A stretch of 64,000 nt of DNA, taken from assembly GCA_018061145.1 (NCBI GenBank), contig JAGOUR010000004.1, positions 10,625-74,624 of the forward strand, in the 5' to 3' direction. The position numbers and the translations under genes are program-made. How positions within the stretch are numbered: position 1 is the first letter of the stretch; each line of letters starts with the position of its first letter. This stretch comes from Minisyncoccota bacterium. GTDB lineage: Bacteria; Patescibacteriota; Minisyncoccia; Phycocordibacterales; UBA9973. Below the pieces are notes generated by a model that was not told the DNA's origin, ran no database searches, and worked only from the letters and a program-made list of their open reading frames with translations. Below are positions 4,041 to 61,937 of the stretch, piece after piece.

Positions 4041-4367
4041 TTATACAAATTCAATCTTATCGCCCTTCTTTAAATATACGACCGCCTTTTTACCACCCTG
4101 TTTCTTTCCAGCTTTACCACGGATGAAAACAGCTTTTTCTGTGATTTGTGTTGTTGTCACTCTTACTGGAGTAACTCCGTAAAGCATTTTGATTGCTTTT
4201 TTGATTTCTGTCTTGTTTGCATTTGTAGCAACATTGAATGTATAAGCATTGTTTTGTGCAGCACGTGCAGCCTTTTCAGTAATACGAAGCCCTTTTATAA
4301 GAGGGTGTGTCTTTGTCGCCTTTTCATCTACCTTAGTATCTACTTTTTTTGTTTTTGTTGTAGCCAT
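4041..4367 (-). CDS. rplW: 50S ribosomal protein L23
   Basis: L23 fold sequence. Sits between rplD and rplB in S10-operon order. Confidence 0.85.
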   Translation of the reverse strand: MATTKTKKVDTKVDEKATKTHPLIKGLRITEKAARAAQNNAYTFNVATNANKTEIKKAIKMLYGVTPVRVTTTQITEKAVFIRGKAGKKQGGKKAVVYLKKGDKIEFV

Positions 4368-4371
4368 AAAA

Positions 4372-5040
4372 TTATTTCTTTTCTATTTTACCTCCCAAAA
4401 ACGCAACAGATTCTGTTGGAGAAGCAATAATAAGATATTTATATGAAAGAAGATCGACTGGATTCATGTTGCGAACTTCGTCAATCTCAGCGATTGGGAT
4501 GTTTGCAAAACTCTTCTTTAAGACATCATTTTTTGCAGGAACTGTGATGTAAGCTTTTGGCTTTGTACCTACACAGATTTTTTCAAATCCAGATACAGTA
4601 CTCAAATCTTTCAACACAGCAATTGCGTCCTTTGTTTTGATATTTTTCATTGAAAGATCTTCAACAAACAATATTTCACCATTCTTAAATTTCTTTGAAA
4701 GAACTGTGAATAGAGCTTGAATCTTCATCTTCTTGTTGATTTTTTGCGCGTAGATCTTATCGTTGCGTGGACCATGAGTCACACCTCCGCCTACCCAGAT
4801 AGGTGAGCGAGATGAACCGTGACGTGCACGTCCTGTTCCCTTTTGTTTCCAAGGCTTGCGTCCTCCACCGCGAACTTCTCCGCGTGTTTTGACATGAGCT
4901 ACAGGTGTACGAGCATTTGCTTGCATAGCTGTAACTACTTGGTGAACTAGGTCAGCGTTCCATTTTAGACCAAAAACTTGCTCTGGAAGTTTTAGACTTC
5001 CAACAGACTTACCCTTTTGATTGTATACTTGTGTTTCCAT
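4372..5040 (-). CDS. rplD: 50S ribosomal protein L4
   Basis: L4 family sequence (RGGGRKPWKQKGTGRAR). Confidence 0.9.
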   Translation of the reverse strand: METQVYNQKGKSVGSLKLPEQVFGLKWNADLVHQVVTAMQANARTPVAHVKTRGEVRGGGRKPWKQKGTGRARHGSSRSPIWVGGGVTHGPRNDKIYAQKINKKMKIQALFTVLSKKFKNGEILFVEDLSMKNIKTKDAIAVLKDLSTVSGFEKICVGTKPKAYITVPAKNDVLKKSFANIPIAEIDEVRNMNPVDLLSYKYLIIASPTESVAFLGGKIEKK

Positions 5041-5044
5041 AATA

Positions 5045-5644
5045 TTATCCTATGACTTCCACTAGAGTACCACGTCGTCCAGGGATTGCGCCTTTAATGA
5101 GTAATTGGTTGTTTTCAACATCTACGCCGACCACTTTCAAGTTGCGAACTGTGATACGATCACCACCCATGCGTCCCGCCATGCGCATACCTTTTGGTAC
5201 ACGATTACGTAGACCTCCACCGATAGAACCTGGCTCACGCTCAGAGTGCTTCTGACCGTGTGTACGAGGACCTCCGGCAAAGCCGTGACGCTTCACTACA
5301 CCTTGAAAACCTTTTCCTTTTGATACACCTGATACGATAACTGTATCCCCTTTAGCAAAACTGCTAACAGTGATACGATCACCGACTGCGATTTCTTCGA
5401 TATCGCGAAACTCTCGAAGATGCTTGTAAGCACCCTCCTTAACATGGCCCAGGTGTGCTTTTGTCGCACGCTCCTTTTTCTGATCGAGGAATGCTACTTG
5501 AACAGCAGTATAGCCATCAGATTCTGGAGTCTTCACTTGAGTAACGACAATAGGACCCGCATCGATAACCGTTGCTGGAACCACTGTACCGTCCTCTTCG
5601 AAGAACTGCACCATATTCTGTTTTTTACCTAGAATAAATTTCAT
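5045..5644 (-). CDS. rplC: 50S ribosomal protein L3
   Basis: L3 family (KGKGFQGVVKRHGF). Confidence 0.9.
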   Translation of the reverse strand: MKFILGKKQNMVQFFEEDGTVVPATVIDAGPIVVTQVKTPESDGYTAVQVAFLDQKKERATKAHLGHVKEGAYKHLREFRDIEEIAVGDRITVSSFAKGDTVIVSGVSKGKGFQGVVKRHGFAGGPRTHGQKHSEREPGSIGGGLRNRVPKGMRMAGRMGGDRITVRNLKVVGVDVENNQLLIKGAIPGRRGTLVEVIG

Positions 5645-13176: not shown

Positions 13177-13200
13177 GTCCGTCTCGAACCGGACTTTTTT
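13177..13200 (+). promoter_or_regulatory. Leader hairpin plus T6 immediately downstream of the predicted TSS (attenuator-like)
   Basis: gtccg-tctcgaac-cggac followed by tttttt. Confidence 0.3.
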
Positions 13201-13389
13201 AGTAAAATAATGAGCCGTAGGCGAATATATTTTATTTATGCAAAACAAGGAGCATCGCGACTATGTTTTGCGCTAGTAAAATAAGGAGCTACGTGTGAAC
13301 ATATTTTATTTATTCAAAATAGGGAGCGAAGCGACCATATTTTGTATTTTAGCAAAATTAAATAGAAGGCATAAATATTTTTTCATGCC
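13201..13389 (+). repeat. Tandem repeat of a ~75-bp unit, about 2.5 copies, in the nusA 5' leader
   Basis: Unit 1 is 13201-13275 and unit 2 is 13276-13350 (agtaaaataaKgagc...atattttatttatKcaaaa.a.ggagc..gcgac.at.ttttg), with a partial third unit. Each half-unit carries a GGAG element. Confidence 0.6.
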
Positions 13390-13402: not shown

Positions 13403-14590
13403 ATGATTGATATAAAAACAATGAAATCAGCCCTCGAACAACTCGAGACTGAGAGAAAAATACCAAAGGACAAGATACTCGATGCTATCGAGCAGGCTCT
13501 TGCTGCTGCCTACAAGAAAGAATATGGCAAAAAAGGCCAGATAATCCGTAACAAATTTGACCTAGAAAATGGGGAAATGAGTTTTTACCAAGTAAAAATC
13601 GCAGTAGACGAGACTATAGTATATATTCCAAAGAATATTGAGGGTGAAGAGGAGGAAGAATTAGCTGACGATGACGAACGCACACGATTCAACGAGGAGC
13701 ATCACATCATGATAGACGATGCCCGCAAGATAAAAAGTGATGTTCAGCTAGAAGAAGAATTGATTTTTCCACTAGAAACACATGAAGATTATGGACGTAT
13801 TGCTGCTCAGACAGCAAAACAAGTGATAATCCAGAAGATCCGTGAAGCAGAGAGAGCATCTATTATAGATGAATACGGAGCAAAAGAGGGTGAAATCATC
13901 AATGGTTTCATACAAAAGGTAGAGAGAGGTGTAGTTTACATCGAATTCAACCGTGCAACAGGCATAATGCTACCTGAAGAACAGATCCCAGGGGAGTTTT
14001 ACAAGCGTGGAGACAGAATCCGTGCGTACCTATATGCAGTCGAGGAGACTCCAAGAGGTATAAATCTAAAGCTTTCTCGTACACATCCTCAATTTATCGA
14101 AGGATTGTTCGCAGTTGAAGCCCCAGAAATAGCAGGTGGCACAGTAGAGATAAAGTCTATAGCCCGTGAAGCTGGTAGTCGCTCAAAGATCGCAGTTTAC
14201 TCAAATGACGACCATATCGACCCAGTAGGATCATGCGTAGGCCAAAAAGGTATCCGTGTAACTACAGTTATGAGTGAATTGGCAGGTGAAAAGATAGATA
14301 TCATCCCATGGTCAGCTGATCCAAAGGAATATGTGGTCAGTGCTCTTTCTCCAGCAAAAGTCCTAAATATTACAGTAAATGAAGGCGATCACAAGGCTAC
14401 AGTAGACGTAGCAGCAGATCAGTTATCTCTAGCTATCGGTAAAGGTGGTCAAAATGTACGCCTTGCAGCAAAGCTCACAGGATGGAGAATCGATATCAAT
14501 GGTACAGAGGCTACACCAGAGGCAAGTACAGATGATATAATAGACGAAGAATCTATCGATGACGGTATCGTCGACGATGGAACAAATTAA
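13403..14590 (+). CDS. nusA: Transcription termination/antitermination factor NusA
   Basis: NusA N-terminal domain, S1 and two KH domains (GxxG: IGKGGQNVRLAAKLTGWRIDI). Acidic C-terminal tail. Confidence 0.9.
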   Translation: MIDIKTMKSALEQLETERKIPKDKILDAIEQALAAAYKKEYGKKGQIIRNKFDLENGEMSFYQVKIAVDETIVYIPKNIEGEEEEELADDDERTRFNEEHHIMIDDARKIKSDVQLEEELIFPLETHEDYGRIAAQTAKQVIIQKIREAERASIIDEYGAKEGEIINGFIQKVERGVVYIEFNRATGIMLPEEQIPGEFYKRGDRIRAYLYAVEETPRGINLKLSRTHPQFIEGLFAVEAPEIAGGTVEIKSIAREAGSRSKIAVYSNDDHIDPVGSCVGQKGIRVTTVMSELAGEKIDIIPWSADPKEYVVSALSPAKVLNITVNEGDHKATVDVAADQLSLAIGKGGQNVRLAAKLTGWRIDINGTEATPEASTDDIIDEESIDDGIVDDGTN

Positions 14591-16289: not shown

Positions 16290-17351
16290 ATGATCAAAAC
16301 AACAGTAACAAAATTAGAAAAAAGTGAAGTAGAAATCACTGGAATTATAGAGAGTGCAGTATTTATGTCCTATGAGGACAAGGCCCTAGCACACCTAGGA
16401 GAGAGAATAGAATTACCAGGTTTTCGCCCAGGTAAAGCTCCTGCTGAGATAATAAAGCAAAATATCAACGATATGATGCTATTAGAGGAGATGGCAGAGC
16501 GTGCAATCACTGCATCATATGCAGAGATAATCGAACAGGAAAAGATCGATGCTATCGGTCGCCCAGAGATCAGTATTACAAAGATTGCTCGTGGTTCTGA
16601 CCTTGAATTCAAGATCAAAACAGCAGTTCTACCAGAGATAAAGCTCCCAGACTACAAGAAAATAGCAAAAGAAGAGAATGCAAAGGAAGATTATAAGAAG
16701 GAGGTCGTGATAGAAGAGGCAGATATCGAAAAGACGCTACTCGATCTACGTAAAATGCGTGCTCACCAAGATCTTCATAAGAATGATGAACCAGGTACAC
16801 CCCACACAGAACACCCAGAGCCAGAAGAAAAAGATCTACCTGTGATCGATGACGAATTTGCAAAATCAATCGGTAAATTTGAAAATGTAGCAGAATTAAA
16901 GGCAAAAATTGCAGAAAACCTAAAGACAGAAAAGGAAACTGACCAAAAAGACAAGCGCCGTCTAGCTATAATCGAGAAACTATTGGAACAGACAGAGGGT
17001 GAACTACCTGAAATTCTAGTAAATGCAGAATCAGACAAGCTGATGTACCGCCTAGAAGCAGATGTGACTCAGATGGGATTCAAATTCGATGAATATTTGA
17101 CTCAAGTAGGAAAAACAGAGGCTGATTTGAGAAATGAATGGAAGCCCGAGGCTGAAAAGCGTGCAAAACTAGCTATGGTCATACACCGCTTGATGGAATT
17201 GGAAAATCTAAGACCAAGCGATGAAGAAGTTCAAAAAGAAGTAGACGTATTGGTAAATATGTATAAAGATGCGGATCCAATCCGTGCTCGTGCATATGTA
17301 GAACAGATGATCGGTAATGAAAAAGTATTTTCTTTCCTAGAAAATCAATAA
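16290..17351 (+). CDS. tig: Trigger factor, short form apparently lacking the PPIase domain
   Basis: Ribosome-binding signature GFRPGKAP. The N-domain links directly to a C-terminal arm domain. At 353 aa it is about 80 aa shorter than canonical TF. clpP is downstream, as in the tig-clpP arrangement. Confidence 0.7.
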   Translation: MIKTTVTKLEKSEVEITGIIESAVFMSYEDKALAHLGERIELPGFRPGKAPAEIIKQNINDMMLLEEMAERAITASYAEIIEQEKIDAIGRPEISITKIARGSDLEFKIKTAVLPEIKLPDYKKIAKEENAKEDYKKEVVIEEADIEKTLLDLRKMRAHQDLHKNDEPGTPHTEHPEPEEKDLPVIDDEFAKSIGKFENVAELKAKIAENLKTEKETDQKDKRRLAIIEKLLEQTEGELPEILVNAESDKLMYRLEADVTQMGFKFDEYLTQVGKTEADLRNEWKPEAEKRAKLAMVIHRLMELENLRPSDEEVQKEVDVLVNMYKDADPIRARAYVEQMIGNEKVFSFLENQ

Positions 17352-17379
17352 AGATTTGTTTCTAGTGACTAGAAAGAAA

Positions 17380-17412
17380 AAAGACCGGAGCGTAAACGCT
17401 TCGGTCTTTTTC
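17380..17412. terminator. Bidirectional terminator between tig (+) and the lipoprotein gene (-)
   Basis: gaccggagcg-taaa-cgcttcggtc with flanking A-run and T-run. Confidence 0.65.
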
Positions 17413-17430
17413 ATTTGTTTGCCTAATTTT

Positions 17431-18102
17431 TTACTTAGTTAGGTCTAATTTGTGAATGACAGCATTTGCTGTATCCACTTTAAATTCGATAGTATCCTTG
17501 TACTTTAAATTTCCAAGATCCAAATCAAATTTAAATTTTTCTGGTAAAGAATTGTAATCGAATTGGTCAAAATAAGAGTAAGGTAGCTCGGAGTATCTAT
17601 CAAAACCACTCTTACCCAGAGTCTTACCATAAAAATGGGTCACCAAGAATGTAGATTCAATGTATTTTGGATATCCGTCAACTTTTGCCAACTTGCCATC
17701 CTCGTACATAACCACTATGGCATTACCATTACCACCAATACCTGCTGGACCTTGATTGTAATCCCAACCACAGTTTACGTCCAACTTTTTAAGAATAGCT
17801 TCATCATTGCAACGGATCTCGTGCTTATCGTTGCCATCTTTGTCACGGACGTCCACATAAGGACCATAACTAAGATAGTAGCAAAATACCCATCCGGTGA
17901 ATCTAGCGCCTCCAACAATGATTGTTTCGAACATCTGCAGTTTCACTGGAGGCTGAGGAGATACTACAACTACCGCCTGTTTTGGGGGAGGTGTTGTCTT
18001 GTAACCACAAGTTAGACACTCCTTTTGACAAGAACTCGATGCAAAGATAAATGCAAAGATCATCGCTATCGAAATAGCGGAAAAGAAAAAGTTATTTTTC
18101 AT
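17431..18102 (-). CDS. Secreted protein or lipoprotein, hypothetical
   Basis: Signal peptide ending FASSSCQKEC (lipobox-like SSC). No recognisable domain. Confidence 0.4.
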   Translation of the reverse strand: MKNNFFFSAISIAMIFAFIFASSSCQKECLTCGYKTTPPPKQAVVVVSPQPPVKLQMFETIIVGGARFTGWVFCYYLSYGPYVDVRDKDGNDKHEIRCNDEAILKKLDVNCGWDYNQGPAGIGGNGNAIVVMYEDGKLAKVDGYPKYIESTFLVTHFYGKTLGKSGFDRYSELPYSYFDQFDYNSLPEKFKFDLDLGNLKYKDTIEFKVDTANAVIHKLDLTK

Positions 18103-18157
18103 TTTGTTTTTATTTAATTTTGCTCATATTATATCATATTTGAACCCTATTTGTCAA

Positions 18158-18228
18158 CCCCGTTAGAAGCAGGTCGCCCCAAGGTGACCGTAGCACTCGC
18201 ATGCTAGCGAGGGCGGCTTCTAACGGGG
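18158..18228. repeat. 71-bp element with perfect 13-bp terminal inverted repeats ccccgttagaagc / gcttctaacgggg (a member of the CCCGTTAGA family)
   Basis: Both arms read directly from the sequence. GC-rich interior. Confidence 0.6.
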
Positions 18229-18239
18229 TCAATGGGGTA

Positions 18240-18335
18240 AATCCCCCCTCCCATTAGCCAAGGGGAGGATTGAGGAGGGGTGAATAATTTTAGCACCCCC
18301 TCTCAGTCTCCCCCTTAGCAAAGGGGGAGAGGAAA
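18240..18335. repeat. GC-rich double-hairpin element (copy 1), REP/MITE-like
   Basis: Hairpins cctccc-attagccaag-gggagg and ctccccc-ttagcaaa-gggggag. About 85% identical to the copy at 61670..61762. Confidence 0.6.
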
Positions 18336-18439
18336 TCAAACCTACGGGTACTCCTCAAGAGGATAATTATCTGTTATACTAACCCTACAATTACCAATAA
18401 TTCCCTAGTCACTAGCAACTAGTCACTAGAACCTAATCC

Positions 18440-19024
18440 ATGTTAATCCCAACAGTTATAGAGAAGACAATGAATGGTGAACGAGCATATGATATATACT
18501 CTCGCCTTTTGAATGAACGCATTATTTTCCTAGCGGGTCCAATCGATGACCACATGGCCAATCTGGTCATAGCCCAGCTACTATATCTAGAGCATACTGA
18601 TAATAAGAAGGATATCTCACTATATATCAATTCCCCTGGTGGTTCTGTGACTGCGGGACTGGCTATCATCGATACTATGAATTTTATAAAGAGTGACGTA
18701 TCTACTATCTGCGTAGGTATCGCCGCATCTATGGGAGCACTAATCCTATCTGCAGGTGAAAAAGGTAAAAGATTTACTCTACCGAACTCTGAGGTTATGA
18801 TCCACCAAGTGATGGGAGGAGCCGAGGGTCAAGCCAGTGATATCGCGATAAATGCAAAGCATATACTACGAAGCAAGGATACATTGAACAAAATCCTAGC
18901 AAAAAATACAGGCAAGAAGTTTGAAGAAGTAGAAAAAGATGCAGATCGCGACTACTGGATGAATGCAGATGAAGCCAAGAAATACGGCATCATCGACCAG
19001 ATAATCACAAAAGTAAAAAAGTAA
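18440..19024 (+). CDS. clpP: ATP-dependent Clp protease proteolytic subunit
   Basis: Catalytic triad context [12 protein letters not shown] and DRD. Typical ClpP length. Confidence 0.95.
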
Positions 19025-19032
19025 AACAAAAA

Positions 19033-19068
19033 AAATCTGCCCAAGGCTCGAGCCTTGGGCAGATTTTT
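19033..19068. terminator. Bidirectional terminator between clpP and the P-type ATPase gene
   Basis: aaatctgcccaaggctc / gagccttgggcagattt perfect 17-bp stem with flanking A-run and T-run. Confidence 0.75.
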
Positions 19069-21634
19069 ATTTTATATGTTTATTTATAAAGAAATATTTT
19101 GTAAATTCTATCACCCATACATTTACAGCGAGCCATCCAAATAAAATCCATAAATAATTAAAAGGTGTCGGAACCAAACCAAATACATTTTGACCGATTT
19201 TCGTGTACACTGTCGCAAAGATTAGTACAAGACCAATCAAAACACTCAAATTCAAACGCCAGTTGCTAAATATATTATAATTCCAGATATATCTATCTAA
19301 ATCTATAAATGAATATGAGATTATCAGTATATATGATGCAAAACACAAGAAAAATACAGACTGAGCTACGCTTATATCAATAATATTCTTTGTTAACAAA
19401 TAGTACAAAACAAAAAGTAGCAAGGAGGATACAGTGCCTATACCTAGTGCCATGAATTTAATTTTAAAATCAAATATTTTTTTATTTTTAGTCCTTAATA
19501 TATTGTTCCGATCATATGCAAAAGCGATAGCTGGTAATGTACCTGTGAGGACATTTACCCATATGATCTGTAGTGCGGTCAGAGGTAGAGCTAGTCCTGC
19601 GATAAGTGAACCAGTTATCACAAAGACTTCATCCAGAGAATTAGACATCAAATACACAAAGACCTTTTGTATATTTTTCCTTATACCGTGTCCCAGTGCA
19701 ATAGTATCTACTATAGTTCTGAAATCATCCCTCAATAAAATCATGTCTGCTGCACTTTTTGCAACCTCACTACCAGAAGATAGAGATATCCCTATATCCA
19801 TTGCTTTTAATGATGGAGAGTCATTCACCCCATCCCCAGTCATAGCCACGATCTCACCGAGCTTTTGATATAACTTTCCTATTCTCAATTTATCCTCGGG
19901 GGTAACTCGGGCAAATATTTTAATCTTTGGTAGGATCTCTAGTAAATCTTCGTCACTTATATTTTCCAATTGAGAACCGGTCAAGACCTCGTCATCACTC
20001 GCATTTATCCCGACCTTTTCCCCTATGAATTTAGCTGTCCCAGGAAGGTCACCAGTGATCATCTTGACTGCCACACCTCTCTTTACTATCTCATCGATAT
20101 CATTTTTTATACCCTCTCTGAGCAAATCTGAAAAGACAAAGAGTCCGAGTAAGTTCAAATCACTCAGACTGGAACTATCACCTCCACTCTTTTGAGCTAT
20201 AGCTATCAATCTTTTTCCTTCATTACTCAAAGAGTCTATATTTTTTAATAATTCTGTTTTATGAACACTATCAAGATTGGAATTATTTATTAAAATATCT
20301 GGTGCACCCAGAAATACAAACAGACTATCCGATGAGGATATTGAATATTTATTTGTAGAATTAAAGGGTGATATTATCTTGGCACTATTTATTTTAAAAT
20401 CAGGATCGATATTCTGCCCATCGATAATCCTAGACAAGATCACTTCAAAAGCATTGCCGGAATATTCTATTTGTTTTTCATCATTCTTCCGGAGAACAAC
20501 AGAGAAATTTTTCCTAGCTTTTATTAAAATATTTTTATGATTATCAGATAAATTGCCTACATCAAATACCGGCATGTCAGCAAAATTAAAACCCTTATCT
20601 AAAAGTAAAATATTTTCAAGATTCAACTTCCCTTCAGTTAAAGTCCCTGTTTTATCGGTCAAAATCAAAGTCGTAGATCCTAGAGTCTCTGCGGCAGATA
20701 ATTTTCGAATCAATCCTCCCTTTTTTGAAATATTCAAAATTCCAACTGAGAGTATCACCGTGAGGGCGATAGGCAAAGCCTCCGGCACTGCACCTACAGC
20801 TACGGCAGAAGCCAGGACTAGCATTTCAAATATATTCTCTCCTCGATGTATACCCAAGATAAATACAAAAGATACTATCAAAATCGCAACGATCAATATA
20901 TACCAAGAAACATTTTTAACCGCAGATTGAACAGGGGTCAATACTTTTTTTGTATTTGCCAATGTGTGTGCTATTTTACCGATTTCAGTATTTTCACCTA
21001 TGTGAGTAACAACTCCCATGCCATTCCCATTTGTCACCAAGGTCCCACAAAAACAATAATTGCGTCTTTCTGTGATTAGTGAATCTGTGACTACCCCCTC
21101 AATTTTTTCCACGGGGAGAGATTCCCCCGTGAGGATCATCTCGTCAGTTTTTAAGTTTGTAACTTCGATCAATCTTATATCTGCAGGGACTCGAGCACCA
21201 TACTGCAAAACAACGATATCCCCCACGACCAAATCTTCTGCTTCTATCTCTATAATCTCTCCGTCTCTTTTAACTAGGGCTTTATTTTTAATGAATTTTT
21301 TTAAATTCTCGATAGTGTTCTCTGCTCGATACTCTTGATAAGTACTAAGGAGAACATTTATTAAAATAGCGGCCCAGATCACTATAGTCTCCATATTTTC
21401 CCCTAAATAGACAGTGACGAAGGAAGCAAATATAAGTATAAATATCAATGGATTCAGGAATTGAGTAAAAAATGTACGGATCAAGCCATTTTTACTATTT
21501 TCTTCAAATATATTCTTACCATATTCTTTTTGTCTGAGTTCTACATCTTTTTCAGAAAGACCAGAAATATCTGTTTTTAAATTTTCTAGGACAAGTTTTG
21601 AGTCCAAGTTATAAGAGGAATGTAAATTTTGCAT
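19067..21634 (-). CDS. P-type cation-transporting ATPase (P2-type, Ca2+/Mg2+ family)
   Basis: DKTGTLT phosphorylation motif. TGDGVNDSPSLK hinge. Ten predicted TM helices. The likely start is MQNLHSSY at 21634 rather than the ORF-track start at 21682. Confidence 0.85.
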   Translation of the reverse strand: MQNLHSSYNLDSKLVLENLKTDISGLSEKDVELRQKEYGKNIFEENSKNGLIRTFFTQFLNPLIFILIFASFVTVYLGENMETIVIWAAILINVLLSTYQEYRAENTIENLKKFIKNKALVKRDGEIIEIEAEDLVVGDIVVLQYGARVPADIRLIEVTNLKTDEMILTGESLPVEKIEGVVTDSLITERRNYCFCGTLVTNGNGMGVVTHIGENTEIGKIAHTLANTKKVLTPVQSAVKNVSWYILIVAILIVSFVFILGIHRGENIFEMLVLASAVAVGAVPEALPIALTVILSVGILNISKKGGLIRKLSAAETLGSTTLILTDKTGTLTEGKLNLENILLLDKGFNFADMPVFDVGNLSDNHKNILIKARKNFSVVLRKNDEKQIEYSGNAFEVILSRIIDGQNIDPDFKINSAKIISPFNSTNKYSISSSDSLFVFLGAPDILINNSNLDSVHKTELLKNIDSLSNEGKRLIAIAQKSGGDSSSLSDLNLLGLFVFSDLLREGIKNDIDEIVKRGVAVKMITGDLPGTAKFIGEKVGINASDDEVLTGSQLENISDEDLLEILPKIKIFARVTPEDKLRIGKLYQKLGEIVAMTGDGVNDSPSLKAMDIGISLSSGSEVAKSAADMILLRDDFRTIVDTIALGHGIRKNIQKVFVYLMSNSLDEVFVITGSLIAGLALPLTALQIIWVNVLTGTLPAIAFAYDRNNILRTKNKKIFDFKIKFMALGIGTVSSLLLFVLYYLLTKNIIDISVAQSVFFLCFASYILIISYSFIDLDRYIWNYNIFSNWRLNLSVLIGLVLIFATVYTKIGQNVFGLVPTPFNYLWILFGWLAVNVWVIEFTKYFFINKHIK

Positions 21635-26914: not shown

Positions 26915-27322
26915 CTAAAGTATTATATTCTCCATCCTTTTTACTCTCGCTTTTCTACTCTCCAGATCCAGATAAACCACCAATATATCAAATTGCCATT
27001 CCCTATTCCCTATCCTGTTATGTATTAGATATGTCTGTATAACTCGAGCCAGTCTCTGGCGCTTCCACATGTGGACATTCTCTTCTGGTCTGAACCACCC
27101 ACTTTTAGTTTCATGTGTAACATAATCCAGATCTGATACAGATTTTGCCTTTACTTCTATAAAATATAGAGAATTCCCCTTTTCAGCTATTATATCTACC
27201 TCCCCCCATTTCTTTGTATAGTTGCGCTCCAATATAATAAAGCCATGTTTCCCGAGAAACATACAGGCTACATCTTCGCCCAATTCCCCTATTTTTTGAG
27301 TATTTGAAGTAAATTTCTTCAT
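26915..27322 (-). CDS. yraN: YraN/UPF0102 family endonuclease (PD-(D/E)xK fold)
   Basis: GELGEDVACMFLGKHGFIILERNYTKKWGEVDIIAEKGNSLYFIEVKAK matches the UPF0102 signature (GE.GE..A...L...G..IL.RN.R...GEIDII..FVEVK). Confidence 0.7.
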   Translation of the reverse strand: MKKFTSNTQKIGELGEDVACMFLGKHGFIILERNYTKKWGEVDIIAEKGNSLYFIEVKAKSVSDLDYVTHETKSGWFRPEENVHMWKRQRLARVIQTYLIHNRIGNREWQFDILVVYLDLESRKARVKRMENIIL

Positions 27323-27440
27323 CCCGTTAGAGATAGGAAGTCCTTAGACTTCCGTATCTTACTTATTAATAGTAAACAATACAAATTTATCTATATACTA
27401 TATATTATAATTAAAATAAAAACGAAACATCTCTAACGGG
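27323..27440. repeat. 118-bp MITE-like leader cassette with CCCGTTAGAGAT / ATCTCTAACGGG terminal inverted repeats, abutting the yraN start codon
   Basis: Termini at 27323-27334 and 27429-27440. Internal hairpin ggaagtc-cttag-gacttcc. Near-identical 40-nt block shared with the element at 35790..35905. Confidence 0.65.
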
Positions 27441-27815
27441 ATTCATATTGTTACATGTGTAACTAATAAAGTGTGCCACGTGAAACGTTTTTCTATTTAT
27501 TAGACATCCAAACCATTATATAATATGTCTTTCACTTAAATAGCTTGATAAATAATGGTATTATAGATATTGTCTTATCTCTTTCGTGTATGACTTTATC
27601 CAATAAAAGCCTGTCTTATAAACAATACACACATAGTTATCCACATAAATGCTTATTTTGTAGGGGATTAACCTGGGGATAAAGGGACAAATCAAGGACG
27701 TCCATTAAAATAGATCTAGTAAATTTTGTGGTCAGGCATAATTTTCTGCTGAAAATTTGCACGACCCTGGCTCACGTCGTCACGTTCCACCTCGCACAAA
27801 ATGTCCGACATTTTG

Positions 27816-28024: not shown

Positions 28025-28095
28025 GCGGGATTAGTTTAGTGGTAGAACTACAGTTTTCCAAACTGTTGGCAGGCGTTCGATTCGCCTATCCCGCA
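28025..28095 (+). tRNA. tRNA-Gly (anticodon UCC), CCA not encoded
   Basis: Acceptor gcgggat/atcccgc, anticodon arm acagt-ttTCCaa-actgt, T-arm aggcg-ttcgatt-cgcct. Confidence 0.85.
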
Positions 28096-28116
28096 CAGTA
28101 TTTATTAACCGTATTT

Positions 28117-28232
28117 GCGGGATAAAGAGCAAACTTCTTTGCTCTTGTAGGCAATCGAAAGACTTTTTGTTGTTTTTCCTCTGGAAAACCAAAAAGTACC
28201 TGACTACGTGGTAGTGATTCGCCTATCCCGCA
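28117..28232 (+). pseudogene. tRNA-Gly-like remnant: a gcgggat 5' acceptor and a ggtag-tgattcgcctatcccgca 3' end separated by a ~90-nt insert with a 9-bp hairpin and no anticodon arm
   Basis: Includes the 28-bp direct repeat (28216-28243) of the tRNA-Gly(UCC) 3' end plus 12 downstream nt. Interior hairpin aagagcaaa-cttc-tttgctctt. Confidence 0.4.
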
Positions 28233-28269
28233 CAGTATTTATTCGTAACAAACGAATATCGAGTTTCAT

Positions 28270-29808
28270 ATGAAACTACAACCTATAAACAACTCAAATA
28301 TACCTGAATATGTTACACATGTAACATCTACCCTCGAAAACGCTGGTTTCGAGGCATTTCTCGTGGGAGGCTGTGTCCGAGACCTGATGATCGGTAGGGA
28401 AGTAAAGGATTGGGATATCACAACCAACGCCACTCCAGAGGAAATCATCCCACTGTTTGAAAAGACAATATACGAGAACAAGTTTGGTACAGTGGGTGTA
28501 TGTATTCCAAAGGTTACACATGAAACTGTTTCAGGTGAAACTAACTCTACCTCACCCAAACCCTCTCCCGCGCCAGAAGAGGGGGCAATTCAGTACCACA
28601 TAATGGAGGTCACACCGTACAGAACTGAAGCAAAATATAGCGATAACAGGCACCCAGATGAAGTGAAATTCAGCCGGGATATATCCGAGGATCTTCAGAG
28701 ACGAGACTTCACAATCAATGCCATGGCATACAATATAGATAAAGGACAGGTGATTGACCTTTATAAAGGACAACAAGACCTAACGGACAGTGTTATACGG
28801 GCCGTGGGTGCCCCGTCCTTGAGATTCCAGGAGGATGGTCTAAGAATGCTCCGTGCAGTACGATTCGCCTCACAGCTCTCCTTTATGATTGATTCCGATA
28901 CTATGACCGGGGCTGTGGATAACTCACATCTTTTAAAAAATATTTCTGGAGAGAGGATTCGTGATGAATTCATGAAAATCATCGAGAGTCCTCGTAGTGT
29001 CGAGGGTGTAGGCATGCTACAAAAACTCGGACTACTAAAATACATCGTTCCTGAACTCGAAGAGGGTATAGGGTGCGATCAGGGTGGGGCACATATCTAT
29101 GATGTATTCACTCACTGCCTAGGTGCACTAGGTCATGCTACTGACAAGGGATACTCTACCGATATCCGCCTGGCTGCACTGTTCCACGATATAGGAAAAC
29201 CTAGGACTAAGAGAAAGGGGATAAAGAAACCTACATTCTATGGCCACGAGGTAGTGGGTGCGAGGATGACAAAGGTGATCATGGAAAGACTCAAATTCCC
29301 AAAGGATACAATAGAATTTGTATCAAATATGGTTCGTCGTCACATGTTCTTCTCCGATACAGAGCAGATCACTCTCTCTGCAGTGCGCAGAGTGATACAG
29401 AATGTCGGGCCAGAACATATCTGGGAACTGATGGAGATACGTGAATGCGACAGGGTAGGGATGAAAAAAGCTGAGGCTCCATATAGACTGAGGAAATATC
29501 ATGCGATGATCGAAGAATGTCTACGCGATCCGATATCTGTCGGTCAGCTCGTAGTAGACGGCAACATTATGAAGAACGAATTAGGCGTAGCACCTGGACG
29601 TCGGATGGGATGGATTCTCCACTCATTACTAGAGGAAGTCCTCGAAGACCCCACAAAAAACACTCGAGAATATCTAGACATCCGCGTGCGAGAGTTGAAT
29701 GATATGACTGATGAGATATTAAAAGAGCTTGCCGATAAAGCAAAAGAACAAAAAAATTTACTTGAGGAAGAAGAGATCGCTGAATTACACAAAAAACACA
29801 AGGTGTAG
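28270..29808 (+). CDS. cca: CCA-adding tRNA nucleotidyltransferase with C-terminal HD domain
   Basis: Pol-beta NTase motif GGCVRDLMIG...DWDITT, RNA-binding region, and HD motif (LFHDIGK). Carries a ~35-aa S/T/P-rich insertion near aa 90-125. Confidence 0.8.
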   Translation: MKLQPINNSNIPEYVTHVTSTLENAGFEAFLVGGCVRDLMIGREVKDWDITTNATPEEIIPLFEKTIYENKFGTVGVCIPKVTHETVSGETNSTSPKPSPAPEEGAIQYHIMEVTPYRTEAKYSDNRHPDEVKFSRDISEDLQRRDFTINAMAYNIDKGQVIDLYKGQQDLTDSVIRAVGAPSLRFQEDGLRMLRAVRFASQLSFMIDSDTMTGAVDNSHLLKNISGERIRDEFMKIIESPRSVEGVGMLQKLGLLKYIVPELEEGIGCDQGGAHIYDVFTHCLGALGHATDKGYSTDIRLAALFHDIGKPRTKRKGIKKPTFYGHEVVGARMTKVIMERLKFPKDTIEFVSNMVRRHMFFSDTEQITLSAVRRVIQNVGPEHIWELMEIRECDRVGMKKAEAPYRLRKYHAMIEECLRDPISVGQLVVDGNIMKNELGVAPGRRMGWILHSLLEEVLEDPTKNTREYLDIRVRELNDMTDEILKELADKAKEQKNLLEEEEIAELHKKHKV

Positions 29809-35785: not shown

Positions 35786-35789
35786 TGGT

Positions 35790-35905
35790 CCCGTTAGAGA
35801 TGCGTTGTTGTAAATTTACGGGATAGTGTAAAATAAGAAGAGGAACATATTATTAACAATAATTAACAAGATACGGAAGTCTTTGGACTTCCTATCTCTA
35901 ACGGG
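35790..35905. repeat. 116-bp MITE-like leader cassette with CCCGTTAGAGAT / ATCTCTAACGGG termini, directly abutting the NYN-gene ATG
   Basis: Termini at 35790-35801 and 35893-35905. Hairpin ggaagtc-tttg-gacttcc. The last 40 nt are almost identical to the yraN leader. Confidence 0.65.
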
Positions 35906-36409
35906 ATGATTATAAAACATAAAGAACAAAGAGTTGGAGTGTTTATCGACACAGCCAATCTATATCACAGCGCAAAAAACCTCTATAAGAGAAAGGTAAA
36001 CTTTGGTGCTGTACTAAAAGACGCAGTAGCAGGACGTAAACTAGTCCGTGCAACAGCATATGTGATAACTAGTGAGGGAGGCGACGAAAAGAGTTTCTTT
36101 GAAGCTCTCACGAAGCTAGGCATAGAGACAAAGACAAAAGACCTCCAAGTATTTTCAGGTGGAGCAAAGAAGGGCGACTGGGATGTAGGTATAGCAGTAG
36201 ATGCTATGAAGATGGCACCCCGCCTCGATGCAGTAGTACTAGTAGCAGGAGATGGGGACTTTATCCCTCTCGTAGAGTACCTCCGAAATACATATGGCAC
36301 ACAAGTAGAAGTGGTTTCATTTGGGAAATCTGCTTCTATGAAACTAAAAGAAGCTGCCGATGACTTCCTAGACTTATCAGTGAGCCCACAAAAATACCTA
36401 ATGAGATAA
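35906..36409 (+). CDS. NYN-domain (LabA-like, PIN-fold) protein
   Basis: VFIDTANLYH...GDWDVGIAVDAM...VLVAGDGDFIPLVEYLR..G..VEVVSF matches the NYN/LabA pattern. Confidence 0.65.
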   Translation: MIIKHKEQRVGVFIDTANLYHSAKNLYKRKVNFGAVLKDAVAGRKLVRATAYVITSEGGDEKSFFEALTKLGIETKTKDLQVFSGGAKKGDWDVGIAVDAMKMAPRLDAVVLVAGDGDFIPLVEYLRNTYGTQVEVVSFGKSASMKLKEAADDFLDLSVSPQKYLMR

Positions 36410-48461: not shown

Positions 48462-50033
48462 ATGTCATTCTCGCGAATATATTCGGCGCAGACACATCTA
48501 CTAAAAGGCAAAGTAGTAACTATCGAAGTGGACATCACAAAGGGGACACTCCATGCATTTACTCTTGTCGGACTACCAGACAAAGCGGTCGATGAATCCA
48601 AAGACCGAATGAGCTCAGCGCTCAAAAATTCTGGATTCAATTCTCCTAAAAATCAAAATCAAAAAATAGTAATCTCGCTGTCCCCGGCAGATTTAAAAAA
48701 GGAGGGACCGTATTTTGATCTGGGTATCGCACTGGCATATCTACTATCCGCAGGGGAGATTGATTTTGATCCAGAGGGAAAAATATTTCTAGGCGAGCTA
48801 TCACTCAATGGTGAACTACAAAATATAAAAGGTGCACTACCCCTGGCAGAGGAGGCCAAGAAGCGGGGCTTCAAAGAAATATTTTTACCAATCGGCAATG
48901 CGACAGAGGCAGCACTAGTGTCAGGGATAAAAATATTTGGAGCCCGAAATCTCCGCGAAGTCATCGATCATCTATCTACCCCGCGCCGTGACAAAAAGGG
49001 AAATTTACTAGAGAAAGAATTGAATAAAATCACACAGACCCCCGAGACAAAAATAATTTTTGAAAATAAAAAACATGCGATAGATTTTTCTGACATCCGG
49101 GGGCAAGAGGGTGCAAAGCGTGGATTAGAAATCGCAGCAGCCGGTGGACACAACATAGCGATGAGTGGATCACCCGGCACAGGCAAGACGATGCTCGCAC
49201 GAGTCTTCTCGCATATCCTACCAGAATTATCCAAAGAAGATATTTTAGAAATTACAGGTATTCATTCTGTCGTCGGATTACTCGATGGAGCACTCGTGAC
49301 TGAATCTCCATTCCGCGCACCACATCATACTGCGAGTTATGTATCGATGATCGGTGGTGGCACAAATCCAAAACCAGGCGAGGTCACCCTCGCACACAAG
49401 GGAGTACTCTTCCTCGATGAATTTCCAGAGTTCGAGAAAAAAGTTCTCGAGTCGCTACGCCAGCCACTCGAAGACAATATAGTATCCATCTCTCGCGCGC
49501 GAGGGTCTGCAATTTTTCCATCAAATTTTATTCTAGTAGCTGCGATGAATCCCTGCCCATGTGGCAATCGTGGTGACAAGAAAAAAATGTGCATCTGCAA
49601 ACCGATGGATCTGGATCGCTACAATAGGAAACTCTCCGGACCGATTCTAGATCGTATTGATATCTGGGTAAATGTATCATCAGTAGACTATGACAAGCTA
49701 GCCAGTGGAGGAGTCGAAGGAGACAGAACAGAGACTATCAAAGAGCGCGTAGCCCGAGCCAGAAATATCCAGGAGAAGAGATTTAAGAGTGCCACTAGGA
49801 ATATAAAAACAAATAGCGAGATGAATGTAAAAGAATTGAATGCATTTGCGCCACTATCGCCCGAGGTGCGCGAGATACTACACAGCAGTGCCGAGCGTCT
49901 CCAACTATCTGCCCGTGCATACCACAGAGTGATAAAGCTCGCCCGTACTATCGCAGACCTCGAGAGCTCTGAGCACATCACAACCCCACATATCCTAGAA
50001 GCCCTGCAGTATAGACCGCGGACACAGAATTAA
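48462..50033 (+). CDS. comM: ComM/YifB-family Mg-chelatase-like AAA+ ATPase
   Basis: Lon-like N-domain. Walker A GSPGTGKTM and Walker B VLFLDEFPEF. C-terminal Mg-chelatase subunit ChlI domain. Confidence 0.85.
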   Translation: MSFSRIYSAQTHLLKGKVVTIEVDITKGTLHAFTLVGLPDKAVDESKDRMSSALKNSGFNSPKNQNQKIVISLSPADLKKEGPYFDLGIALAYLLSAGEIDFDPEGKIFLGELSLNGELQNIKGALPLAEEAKKRGFKEIFLPIGNATEAALVSGIKIFGARNLREVIDHLSTPRRDKKGNLLEKELNKITQTPETKIIFENKKHAIDFSDIRGQEGAKRGLEIAAAGGHNIAMSGSPGTGKTMLARVFSHILPELSKEDILEITGIHSVVGLLDGALVTESPFRAPHHTASYVSMIGGGTNPKPGEVTLAHKGVLFLDEFPEFEKKVLESLRQPLEDNIVSISRARGSAIFPSNFILVAAMNPCPCGNRGDKKKMCICKPMDLDRYNRKLSGPILDRIDIWVNVSSVDYDKLASGGVEGDRTETIKERVARARNIQEKRFKSATRNIKTNSEMNVKELNAFAPLSPEVREILHSSAERLQLSARAYHRVIKLARTIADLESSEHITTPHILEALQYRPRTQN

Positions 50034-50049
50034 TACACCTCATCCGCCC

Positions 50050-50140
50050 TACGGGCACCTTCTCCTGGAGAGGAGAAGGGGGATTAATACGAATTAGAAT
50101 TTCCTCCTCTCCTTTCCAGGAGAGGGTCAGGGTGAGGTTG
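50050..50140. repeat. GC-rich double-hairpin element (copy 3, diverged) immediately upstream of the DUF559 gene
   Basis: ccttctcc-tggag-aggagaagg and cctctcc-tttcc-aggagagg. Confidence 0.55.
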
Positions 50141-50149
50141 ATTTATTTT

Positions 50150-50539
50150 ATGAAAAGAATCATCAACAATTTTAAGAGAAAAGAAATTAGAAAAAATCTC
50201 AGAAGAACCCAAACACCACAAGAGATAATCCTTTGGGCTCGACTCCGTAATAATCAAACAAATTTTAAATGGAAAAGGCAAGTAAGCATTGGATCATACA
50301 TTGCTGATTTTTATTGTCACAAAAAACTCCTAGTAATTGAGATTGATGGGTCACAACACCTAGAAAACAAAGAATATGACATAGAGAGGAGCAAATTTTT
50401 TCTTGATTTAGGGATTAGAACAATAAGATTTTGGAATAATGAAATTAATACAAATATAGATGGGGTGATACTAAAAATTGAGAGCGAATTAAAGAATACA
50501 CCTCACCCCAGCCCTCTCCTGAAAGGAGAGGGTGAATAA
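50150..50539 (+). CDS. DUF559 endonuclease-domain protein (Vsr-like / PD-(D/E)xK fold)
   Basis: RRTQTPQEIILWARLRN...IGSYIADFYCH...LVIEIDGSQH...DIERSKFLLDLGIRTIRFWNNE matches the DUF559 signature. The C-terminal 14 aa are encoded by a repeat hairpin. Confidence 0.65.
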   Translation: MKRIINNFKRKEIRKNLRRTQTPQEIILWARLRNNQTNFKWKRQVSIGSYIADFYCHKKLLVIEIDGSQHLENKEYDIERSKFFLDLGIRTIRFWNNEINTNIDGVILKIESELKNTPHPSPLLKGEGE

Positions 50540-51317: not shown

Positions 51318-51548
51318 CCCATTAAAAAATTAAAATAATAATGTTTATTTACAGTTTCCCGTAAGTCGATTTTCTAACGGGACAAGTATATTCATTGTAT
51401 TCCAAGCAATATATTTTGTCAATCTATATCAACAAAATTATTTAAATCTATAAAACACCCTGTTTTACAAGATTAAAATTAAAGAAATTAGTTCTGTATG
51501 CTTGACAAATATTGCATGCCTGATATTATATATATAAAATTTTAAAAC

Positions 51549-61061: not shown

Positions 61062-61937
61062 ATGATTCATAAAGCTAAAAAATCACTAGGGCAAAACTTT
61101 CTCAAGAGCAAACCAGCATTGAATATGATGATTAGTGCCGGCGAGGTAGGGAATGCAGATACTATAGTAGAGATCGGTCCGGGTAAAGGCGCTCTCACAG
61201 AGAAACTCCTTGAAAATGCGGGACATGTCATTGCGATTGAAAAAGATCGTGATCTTATAGACTTTCTGAAAGAAAAGTTCGCGACAGAAATAGAAAACGG
61301 GAAATTTGAATTAGTGCAAGGGGATTGTCTGGAGTGGAATCCAAAAGTACTAAAAGGTTCAAACTACAAGCTAATAGCAAATATCCCATATAATATAACC
61401 GGTGCAATACTAAAAAAATTCCTCTCTGAAGAAAATCAGCCAGAGCGCATGGTGCTATTAGTCCAAAAGGAAGTAGCCGAGAGGATAGTGGCCCGAGACG
61501 GCAAGGAGAGCATACTGTCTATCAGTGTAAAAGCATACGGCACACCAAAATACATGATGAAAGTAGAAAAAAGATTCTTTTCTCCGGCACCAAAGGTAGA
61601 TTCTGCTATTATCGCTATAACAGCTATATCAAAAAAGAATTTTGAATCCGAGTCCCCCCTCCCATTACCAAGGGGAGGGCTGGGGAGAGGTGAATTAATT
61701 AAGAACCCCCTCACAGTCTCCCCCTTAGTAAGGGGGAGAGGGACTCAGAATGCAGAATCCCGATTTTTTGAAATACTAAAAGCTGGATTTGCCCACAAGA
61801 GAAAGGTGCTGAAGAAAAACCTTGAAGACTCACTATCAAAAGAAAAAATAGTCGAATTGTTTAAAACCCACAATATAGATGAAAAAGTTAGAGCTGAGGA
61901 TATAAAGCTCCAAAACTGGCTAGATTTCATAAAATAA
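61062..61937 (+). CDS. rsmA: 16S rRNA (adenine1518/1519-N6)-dimethyltransferase KsgA/RsmA, carrying an in-frame ~31-codon insertion derived from a GC-rich repeat element
   Basis: SAM-binding LGQNFL...EIGPGKGALT, NIPYNIT, C-terminal FAHKRKVLKKNL. Residues SPLPLPRGGLGRGELIKNPLTVSPLVRGRGTQ are encoded by repeat copy 2. Confidence 0.85.
   Translation: MIHKAKKSLGQNFLKSKPALNMMISAGEVGNADTIVEIGPGKGALTEKLLENAGHVIAIEKDRDLIDFLKEKFATEIENGKFELVQGDCLEWNPKVLKGSNYKLIANIPYNITGAILKKFLSEENQPERMVLLVQKEVAERIVARDGKESILSISVKAYGTPKYMMKVEKRFFSPAPKVDSAIIAITAISKKNFESESPLPLPRGGLGRGELIKNPLTVSPLVRGRGTQNAESRFFEILKAGFAHKRKVLKKNLEDSLSKEKIVELFKTHNIDEKVRAEDIKLQNWLDFIK
61670..61762. repeat. GC-rich double-hairpin element (copy 2), located inside the ksgA coding sequence
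   Basis: About 85% identical to 18240..18335. Hairpins cctccc-attaccaag-gggagg and ctccccc-ttagtaa-gggggag. Confidence 0.65.

Follow-up and report, generated by a model that had tools for sequence, protein, structure and literature searches.

What is the GC-rich island in front of clpP in a Patescibacteria genome, and does it serve its host? The island lies at 18158-18332 of the window, by which we mean a whole stretch of 64,000 nucleotides of a Minisyncoccota bacterium (GenBank assembly GCA_018061145.1, contig JAGOUR010000004.1, positions 10,625 to 74,624). A sequence-only reading had divided it into a short element with inverted ends (part 1) and a double hairpin (part 2), and had offered two explanations, nested insertion of small non-autonomous elements or a structured RNA locus. 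It had also placed the island in AT-rich intergenic DNA between divergent genes. This was borne out: GC content is about 0.6 in the island and about 0.39 in the window, and the island stands in a 337-bp spacer between a minus-strand open reading frame (ORF, 17431-18102) and plus-strand clpP (18440-19024). Our reading, to which we assign a probability of about 80%, is that the island consists of two independent insertions of non-autonomous mobile DNA, and that part 2 is the gene-less form of a DUF559 element.

Part 1 (18158-18228) is a 71-bp element. Its terminal inverted repeats (18158-18170 and 18216-18228) have the 13-bp sequence CCCCGTTAGAAGC exactly, as had been claimed, and the arms extend to 14 nt (18157-18170 and 18216-18229; 100% complementary, 45 nt between them). 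Two inner hairpins fill the interior, A at 18172-18189 and B at 18193-18214. The locus was compared with five relatives that have an empty site, L002, L003 and L004 (ClpP 100% identical) and L274 and L275 (ClpP 99% identical). All five have a much shorter spacer. The empty site reads TTGTCAA/TGGGG in L002-L004 and L275 and TTGTCAA/GG in L274, and the filled site reads TTGTCAA, the 71 bp and then TCAATGGGG. In the alignment, TATTTGTCAA is joined directly to TGGGGTAAATCCCCC in the relatives. In the window, TATTTGTCAA is followed by CCCCGTTAG...CTAACGGGG, TCAA and TGGGGTAAATCCCC.

The window and a second assembly (L001; GCA_017992635.1, contig JAGOOI010000012) carry exactly 75 extra bases compared with the relatives, that is, the 71 bp plus a second TCAA. 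L001 has an unchanged ClpP and an island identical to that of the window; the same island in two independent assemblies ruled out an assembly artefact. Part 1 is thus a presence/absence polymorphism, present in the window and L001 and absent from L002-L004, L274 and L275. The sequence-only reading had suggested inspection for target-site duplications, and one was found: TCAA flanks part 1 on both sides (left copy 18154-18157, right copy 18229-18232) and is single in the empty sites. A 73-bp element with a CA duplication fits the site equally well. We preferred 71 + 4 because the duplication statistics of the family favour 4 bp. These comparisons demonstrated that part 1 is an insertion with a 4-bp duplication, and the recurrence of its ends demonstrated that it belongs to a family.

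The 9-mer CCCGTTAGA occurs 7 times in the window, where 0.22 occurrences were expected; 7 was reached in 0 of 100 shuffles. The sites are 18159/18219, 27323/27432, 35790/35897 and 51373, each in an intergenic inverted pair. The core that the sequence-only reading had seen in the cassettes at 27323 and 35790 is therefore present in both arms of each. The first cassette (27322-27441, minus strand, 120 bp) has TCCCGTTAGAGAT...ATCTCTAACGGGA ends and a TTCA duplication and adjoins the start codon of a UPF0102 gene (26915-27322). The second (35789-35906, plus strand, 118 bp) adjoins the start codon of an NYN-domain gene (35906-36409). These two elements, with CCCGTTAGAGAT ends, have a common 38-nt end (95%) with a GGAAGTC..GACTTCC hairpin and the same orientation, each stopping exactly at the ATG of the downstream gene. 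The site at 51373 lies in a degenerate minimal member (51359-51384, TCCCGTAAG..TTCTAACGGGA, intergenic). An invertible promoter was considered for the two cassettes of about 120 bp and rejected: both point the same way toward their genes, and no recombinase was seen.

Both parts of the island have copies beyond the window; the sequence-only reading had named a lack of such copies as what would count against it. For part 1, viral contigs were scanned for CCCGTTAGA-N30-60-TCTAACGGG. Thirteen contigs matched, and in most of them the arms paired well past the fixed 9 bases. Minimal forms such as CCCCGTTAGAAAC-CTT-GTTTCTAACGGGG occur in the same contigs. Three viral scans at 341-521-bp spacing gave 2-4 matches each without arm extension, which is the chance background. 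A scan of genome contigs with 1-61 nt between the arms gave at least 120 matches. Those listed came mostly from Patescibacteria (Saccharibacteria, Paceibacterota, Nomura-, Kerfeld-, Jorgensen-, Doudnabacteria and others), and they also took in metagenome-assembled genomes (MAGs) of Omnitrophota, Planctomycetota, Nitrospirota, Desulfobacterota, Cloacimonadota, Bacteroidales and Gammaproteobacteria. No match to part 1 was found among cultured phage or plasmid collections. A literature search with the 9-mer CCCGTTAGA returned primers and the like only, and one for miniature inverted-repeat transposable elements (MITEs) in Patescibacteria or the Candidate Phyla Radiation returned no description of the family.

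Family statistics were taken from 158 elements among the matches listed (157 for duplications), with the upper size set by the design of the scan. The smallest element had 23 bp and the largest about 150 bp, the commonest sizes being near 29 bp and 60-80 bp; the interior was highly variable. The outermost pair was C..G in 101 elements and T..A in 45 (146/158 together), and the ends read (C/T)CCCGTTAGA. A perfect 4-bp direct repeat flanked 73 of 157 elements; with shuffled flanks the mean was 10.2 and the maximum 19. The duplications (TTTA 21, TTCA 11, TTGA 7, TAAA 6, TCAA 5, TGAA 5, and others) fit a loosely palindromic target, (R)TNNA(Y). They vary in sequence and are fixed in length, indicating a 4-nt staggered break at the target.

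Members also lie inside genes. Twenty-five of the 158 elements were found within open frames that continued for 50 codons or more to either side. Element length plus 4 was divisible by 3 in 22 of these 25, compared with 74/158 overall. The peptides from in-frame copies carry a recurring signature, (N/D)PVR...SNG(V/I) or PLE...LTG, and the housekeeping hosts named were rsmH, a uvrA-like gene and ksgA. The closest relative of part 1 found (L027, a Nomurabacteria MAG, MFTV01000010; 63/71 positions, 89% identical) lies in frame inside rsmH, where it adds 25 residues (..ENID, then PVRSRPLEHESATITLGRPASNGID, then GIIFDLG..) and has a TTGA duplication. About 30 members outside the window adjoin a start codon exactly. 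The part 1 family is an undescribed, cross-phylum family of ultra-small inverted-repeat elements that are often frame-preserving.

The conserved 9-10-nt core and the widely variable interior would also suit palindromes that bind a protein, or signals of the DNA-uptake type, kept by selection and not transposed. Many copies stand beside start codons or -35-like sequences, and Patescibacteria are described as naturally competent (PMC10187176). However, part 1 is a precise insertion when set against its empty sites, the flanking duplications of the 73 elements vary from copy to copy, and some copies lie in frame inside genes. Arm spacing ranges from 5 to more than 100 nt, which is ill-suited to a single binding protein. 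In the window, the density amounts to only about 1 per 9 kb, and every arm belongs to an inverted pair. Selection for such a signal is therefore extremely unlikely as the origin of the family.

For part 1 as mobile DNA, we propose that the element would enter (R)TNNA(Y) through a 4-nt staggered break, leaving a 4-bp duplication, here TCAA, and that it would be moved by an enzyme acting in trans. Two points weigh against this proposal. About half of the 157 family members have no perfect duplication. In addition, no transposase or recurrent neighbour was found, so the mechanism is drawn from the ends and the duplications. A search for a parent element in about 2 Mb of loci gave unpaired or long-range arm pairs that were due to chance or to separate short elements, and all-against-all ORF clustering for a recurrent neighbour protein gave housekeeping genes only. 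The three viral scans at 341-521-bp spacing yielded no parent element either.

Part 2 (18244-18332) is an inverted doublet of two units that resemble the "intrastrand triplex motif" (TM), formerly called BoxC and PIT (Holder et al. 2015, PMC4666352). The left unit (18244-18282) has a pyrimidine arm (CCTCCC), a purine arm (GGGGAGG, 18262-18268) and a mirror block (GGAGGGG, 18274-18280), which give an exact 7-nt purine mirror. An AT-rich centre of 11-12 nt (18283-18294) separates it from the right unit (18295-18332), whose blocks, read on the minus strand, are CTCCCCCTT, AAGGGGGAG and GAGAGGGGG. In the left unit, loop 1 measures 9-10 nt (ATTAGCCAA(G)); the two loops of the right unit measure 4 and 3 nt. 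Where part 2 begins on the left is ambiguous, since its C run is common to a small hairpin, GGGGTAAATCCCC (18234-18246), that lies between the two parts. This hairpin is native. It belongs to neither insertion and is also present in relatives without both elements (L002-L004, L275, L277 and L278). Parts 1 and 2 are separated by TCAA and this hairpin, TGGGGTAAATCCCC. The elements thus lie side by side and are not nested as the sequence-only reading had suggested; its view of both as small non-autonomous elements is supported by the 75-bp insertion and by the copy of part 2 in ksgA.

This second copy of part 2 (61653-61741, plus strand) lies in frame in ksgA/rsmA (ORF 61062-61937). It is 86.8% identical to part 2 over 91 nt by blastn, close to the value of about 85% first estimated, and 77/90 positions agree in a global alignment. 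The ksgA insert comprises 96 extra nt, or 32 codons (..ESPLPLPRGGLGRGELIKNPLTVSPLVRGRGT..), between the methyltransferase and C-terminal domains. KsgA homologues P0002-P0011 (256-281 aa, up to 93% identical) do not have the insert, and one 98% identical homologue has it. At the DNA level, ksgA of the window is 96 bases longer than that of L140. These alignments demonstrated part 2 as an insertion at the ksgA site. A homologous element occupies the same codon position in the distant ksgA genes L142, L143 and P0080; in P0070 it lies elsewhere in the gene.

Many KsgA homologues (P0006, P0010, P0013, P0025, P0031 and others) also have an N-terminal insert of about 20-25 residues (..LGLKKFS..FSP.T.SF..; alignment columns 17-45). 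It is flanked by duplicated KAKKSLG and represents a different insertion type with a longer duplication.

Metagenomes were scanned with the left-half signature of part 2, and at least 120 matches were obtained on contigs with GC contents of 0.34-0.70. Those listed were single units and 17 full doublets, among them five near-identical 78-bp doublets with different flanks. A viral scan with a simple hairpin pattern for part 2 gave unrelated GC-rich hairpins only. In the window, a solo unit was detected with nhmmer and a profile of DUF559-flanking units (28545-28585, minus strand, E = 7.7e-4) inside the open frame of the gene for the CCA-adding enzyme (28270-29808). It is probably another in-frame insertion. 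In metagenome locus L169, an in-frame segment of the RecA ORF (4244-5323), RPLPGLPLAKGEEKGGG, looks like a unit insertion.

A profile of the part 2 copies detected three further units in the window, at 50027-50082, 50103-50150 and 50489-50534. The last two are inverted relative to each other and bracket ORF 50150-50539, together forming a DUF559 mini-element (50103-50539, plus strand). The first is a solo unit beside it (nhmmer, minus strand). The ORF product belongs to DUF559 (Pfam PF04480, E = 2e-32); among solved structures, the endonuclease-like protein 3HRL is nearest to it. The ORF extends into the right unit, which encodes the tail PHPSPLLKGEGE. Of 120 DUF559 homologues that cover the query to its end (58-100% identity), 62 have P.PSP in their last 45 residues. 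The same order of unit, DUF559 gene and inverted unit was found in three other Patescibacteria contigs (L144, L146 and L148) in different gene neighbourhoods: one after ychF, one between an adenylate-kinase-like gene and a DUF8128 gene, and one with ruvB and an ART-PolyVal gene on its two sides.

The association extends to other lineages. Among the metagenome matches listed, DUF559 ORFs touched units at 3 loci and were bracketed by inverted units in L169 and L271. Against the units flanking the L169 ORF (5828-6202), the left half of part 2 agrees at 34/40 positions and the right half at 36/38, indicating that part 2 has the structure of that element minus its gene. Next to this gene, at 6240-6335 of L169, a unit has another unit inserted in its loop. 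With a profile made solely from DUF559-flanking units, the ksgA copy of part 2 was matched (E = 1.8e-4). A tblastn search of plasmid records with the DUF559 protein of the window gave 34 records. Inverted, lineage-specific units flanked the DUF559 ORF in 5/5 records inspected (Deinococcus, Azospirillum, Sphingomonas, Synechocystis and Picosynechococcus), a count that leaves out a Neisseria gonorrhoeae record (L283) without an annotated ORF. On the Sphingomonas parapaucimobilis plasmid NZ_CP155753.1 (L282, 327-772), the gene and its two inverted units stand between sufB and sufC, in the suf operon. These results showed that part 2-type units bracket DUF559 genes.

E. coli K-12 (NC_000913.3; L272, 5040-5830) has a single DUF559 gene, ycjD, which ends inside a unit-like hairpin (..RRSPSP*). 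A hairpin, CACCTCATTCTGACAA..TTGTCAGAATGAGGTG, lies upstream of the gene. The fabI-ycjD spacer contains a partial duplicate of the last ~15 ycjD codons and, about 170 bp beyond the unit-like hairpin, a full BoxC/TM motif. When the fabI-ycjD-sapF segment was compared with complete E. coli genomes, about 38% of them matched it over the fabI-proximal 214 bases only. Uropathogenic E. coli 536 has other genes instead of the ycjD region and keeps a remnant of the motif at the breakpoint. A clean ycjD empty site was not found in E. coli, the case of strain 536 being a replacement, which fits the published instability of motif sites. A literature search gave no paper linking DUF559 or ycjD to BoxC/triplex motifs. 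The association of DUF559 with BoxC/PIT/triplex motifs is consistent and apparently unreported.

An arrangement of unit, gene and inverted unit fits either direction of descent. The triplex doublets could be targets, with DUF559 a free-standing homing endonuclease that invades their AT-rich centre, and the doublets could spread otherwise, by slippage, recombination or another enzyme. A homing endonuclease of a group I intron belongs to the Vsr/DUF559 clade (PMC3424549), and units and doublets far outnumber DUF559 genes, which were present at 3 of 120 unit-bearing metagenome loci listed. On the other hand, in elements of the type seen in Patescibacteria, Sphingomonas and E. coli, the ORF continues into a unit that encodes the conserved C-terminal tail, so gene and unit evolve as one module. 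The unit subtype also co-varies with the lineage of the DUF559 gene. Both observations are compatible with homing as well, and we consider the homing account unlikely but worth keeping in view.

For part 2 as the gene-less form of a DUF559 element, we propose that the doublet would be copied or moved in trans by the DUF559 endonuclease (Vsr-like PD-(D/E)xK), in the way that REPIN doublets depend on RAYT genes. Several points weigh against this. The association of DUF559 genes with units is, as far as the sequences go, a co-location, and units occur in two opposite orientations relative to the gene. The DUF559 gene of the window is flanked by a unit subtype different from part 2, and the intergenic part 2 fell below significance with the DUF559-unit profile. 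A consistent target duplication was not found for part 2-type doublets (17 doublets among the matches listed). The intergenic part 2 has no clean empty site; the slot in L274 holds another GC-rich segment, and the boundaries and duplication (possibly AAAT) of part 2 there are therefore uncertain. Finally, the motif in E. coli has no detected link to mobile elements or to the function of flanking genes (PMC4666352).

In one viral contig (L016, 2700-2790), a 23-bp mini element of the CCCGTTAG type with a TTTA duplication lies right beside a triplex-motif-like hairpin. Both families are thus adjacent there, as they are upstream of clpP.

Could the island instead encode a structured non-coding RNA, or act in cis, as RNA or DNA, in the control of clpP or its neighbour? 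The segment 18150-18345 folded far better than shuffled sequences on both strands (z = -7.0 and -8.3), and the island lies just upstream of two promoter-like sites. The three-helix fold of part 1 was kept in four members of its sub-family, with 92.7% of cells paired and at most 46% in slid controls. Seven pairs had changed on both sides across the four relatives, and one G-T pair, on one strand only, was invariant. This four-sequence comparison shows only upkeep of the palindromic shape. The strand bearing the G-T pair is antisense to rsmH in L027, so a function at the mRNA level is unlikely, and part 2 has its copy in ksgA. Copies are found within coding sequences, and they are found in both orientations. 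An Rfam scan of 17000-19500 gave only weak microRNA-type noise well below gathering scores, even at E <= 10. At gathering thresholds, the whole window gave 4 tRNAs only and no family over the island. Relatives with 99-100% identical ClpP are without both elements.

The two promoter-like sites were located. The minus-strand gene at 17431-18102 encodes 223 aa without a Pfam match and is called lipoprotein-like here from its predicted, Cys-containing signal-like N-terminus. Its predicted sigma-70-type promoter (18128-18157, minus strand; TTGACA-18-TATAAT with TG) agrees with the consensus at 12/12 hexamer positions, and the sequence is kept in the empty-site relatives. The -35 hexamer adjoins part 1 and overlaps the duplicated TCAA; it is still intact after the insertion. 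The native upstream region of clpP (18342-18439, plus strand) lies outside the island and contains TGTTATACT, a putative extended -10 assigned by eye. These 98 nt are nearly identical in the closest relative, L274. Since the -10-like site of clpP is reached only downstream of the island, and the other promoter faces away from the island, the island would form part of neither leader. Unrelated small elements occupy the same slot in other lineages. A structured RNA or a cis-regulatory element is therefore very unlikely, and this half of the sequence-only reading was not supported.

Two regulatory motifs were considered within part 1 and rejected. TAGCACTC (18192-18200) matches 8/9 bases of a half-site of CIRCE, the HrcA operator of the heat-shock response; a second half-site at the right distance is absent, and the match was judged a coincidence. 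GGTCAAT resembles the heptad of CtsR, the class III heat-shock repressor, but the second half-site is misplaced and GTCAA derives from the -35 hexamer.

The occupants of the clpP-upstream spacer differ between lineages. Where the window has part 2, L274 (from the contig that also holds the ksgA-empty L140) carries another hairpin segment, GC-rich and 59 nt long. L277 and L278 have an element of about 115 bp with 13-bp ends, GCGAATCTTAAAA...TTTTAAGATTCGC, in the same spacer (~2355-2475 of each locus). These results indicated that the spacer is an insertion hot spot. The island is recent, strain-specific baggage in this spacer and not a conserved control element of clpP. We infer that it has no host function. 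In our proposal, both insertions would have entered the spacer that separates the divergent promoters of clpP and the lipoprotein-like gene in a genome of the Paceibacterota (Patescibacteria). Neither need serve the host, and both may persist partly through tolerance, to which frame-preserving sizes, self-folding and a position upstream of both promoter-like sites could contribute.

Two other repeats were seen in the window. A perfect 28-bp direct repeat (28079-28106 and 28216-28243, spaced 137 bp) overlaps with its first copy the 3' end of tRNA-Gly(tcc) (28025-28096). Integration into a tRNA gene leaves such a pattern, although the segment enclosed here is tiny. Two tandem 71-nt copies (13200-13344, 74-nt period, 77% identity) lie in the spacer upstream of the ORF at 13403, and they gave no Rfam match at the gathering threshold.

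The practical message of the locus itself is modest, that of ordinary selfish DNA in a hot-spot spacer. A wider proposal has two parts: that DUF559 (YcjD-like, Vsr-fold) enzymes maintain or spread BoxC/PIT/triplex repeats, and that the CCCGTTAGA-end elements, phage-borne and cross-phylum, are the smallest elements known to make target duplications and have frame-tuned sizes. We put it forward tentatively, at rather less than even odds. If it is true, the units and DUF559 would form a second partnership like that of REP and RAYT, based on a PD-(D/E)xK nuclease instead of an HUH transposase, and the part 2-type doublets would be an ORF-less form able to settle in frame in essential genes. BoxC/PIT/triplex repeats have been known since the 1990s in hundreds of genomes, at unstable sites, with no established origin, function or spreading mechanism (PMC4666352). 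The DUF559 bracketing in every lineage inspected and the gene-less part 2 give a concrete hypothesis, directly testable in E. coli via ycjD. The part 1 family is an ultra-small mobile palindrome common to Patescibacteria, viral contigs and several other phyla that only MAGs represent here, and it bears on gene calling, on comparisons of protein length and on the tolerance of selfish DNA in reduced genomes.

Among known systems, part 1 is most readily compared with MITEs such as the Correia elements of Neisseria. Like them, it has perfect inverted repeats and a duplication, lacks coding capacity, occurs in many copies, has empty sites in relatives and often stands beside promoters and gene starts. 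It differs in that its family has no known parent insertion sequence, is found with one and the same 9-10-nt end across several phyla and in viral contigs, and has many copies in frame within genes. To our knowledge, its members of 23-29 bp are shorter than described MITEs. The CCC... ends and 4-bp duplications may recall IS1380/piggyBac, a possible lead on which a literature search gave nothing usable. Two other systems were rejected. Integron attC sites have the inverse core RYYYAAC at the 5' end and the core GTTRRRY at the 3' end. In the part 1 family, this order is reversed on either strand (GTTAGA...TCTAAC), and the flanks are unique DNA with a duplication. Palindromes derived from IS200/IS605 insert 3' of one fixed tetra- or pentanucleotide without duplication. 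Such an insertion was ruled out, as the copies of the part 1 family differ in their flanking repeats.

In-frame palindromes are reportedly found in another reduced genome: Rickettsia palindromic elements are said to insert in frame into genes and to add a peptide without destroying the gene. Their sequences and host phylum are unrelated to ours, and two families are present here, one with 4-bp duplications and one tied to an endonuclease gene. Cyanobacterial mobile repeats are said to be 21-27 nt long, often hairpins, and nested in other repeats and within genes. They are a different sequence family and are not known to have been described with a 4-bp TNNA duplication.

Part 2 and its DUF559 gene resemble REP sequences (repetitive extragenic palindromes), their REPIN doublets and the RAYT genes (Bertels and Rainey 2011, PMC3116915; Nunvar et al. 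2013, PMC3733652). In both systems, the units are short GC-rich hairpins, and the inverted doublet is apparently the dispersed form; here, two doublets were found in the window and 17 full ones among the metagenome matches listed. In both, two inverted units bracket a single-copy gene, the units are lineage-specific, and there is no clear duplication. In contrast, the bracketed gene here encodes a DUF559 PD-(D/E)xK endonuclease and not an IS200/IS605-like HUH (Y1) tyrosine transposase, and the units have a third, mirror-repeat block and no GTAG or CGTC head.

The closest likeness in the units themselves is to BoxC/PIT/TM. Each half of part 2 is built from the same three blocks, namely a pyrimidine arm, its purine complement and a mirror block of purines. 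The known motifs are likewise G/C-rich, about 35-45 nt long, dispersed and often in inverted pairs (Hoyne et al. 2000; PMC4666352). The triplex motif occurs in >260 genomes, and E. coli K-12 has 23 copies, with inverted pairs at 5/18 loci, all intergenic (PMC4666352). It is associated with hypervariable sites and has no promoter or terminator activity, and a stable triplex in vivo was not found by its authors (PMC4666352). The clpP-upstream slot is hypervariable in the same way. One difference is that the first loop of the left unit of part 2, at 9-10 nt, is longer than the 1-6 nt of the ITxF definition and falls outside it. Another is that the doublets described here also lie in frame in genes (ksgA, and RecA in L169), whereas the E. 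coli motifs are reported to be always intergenic.

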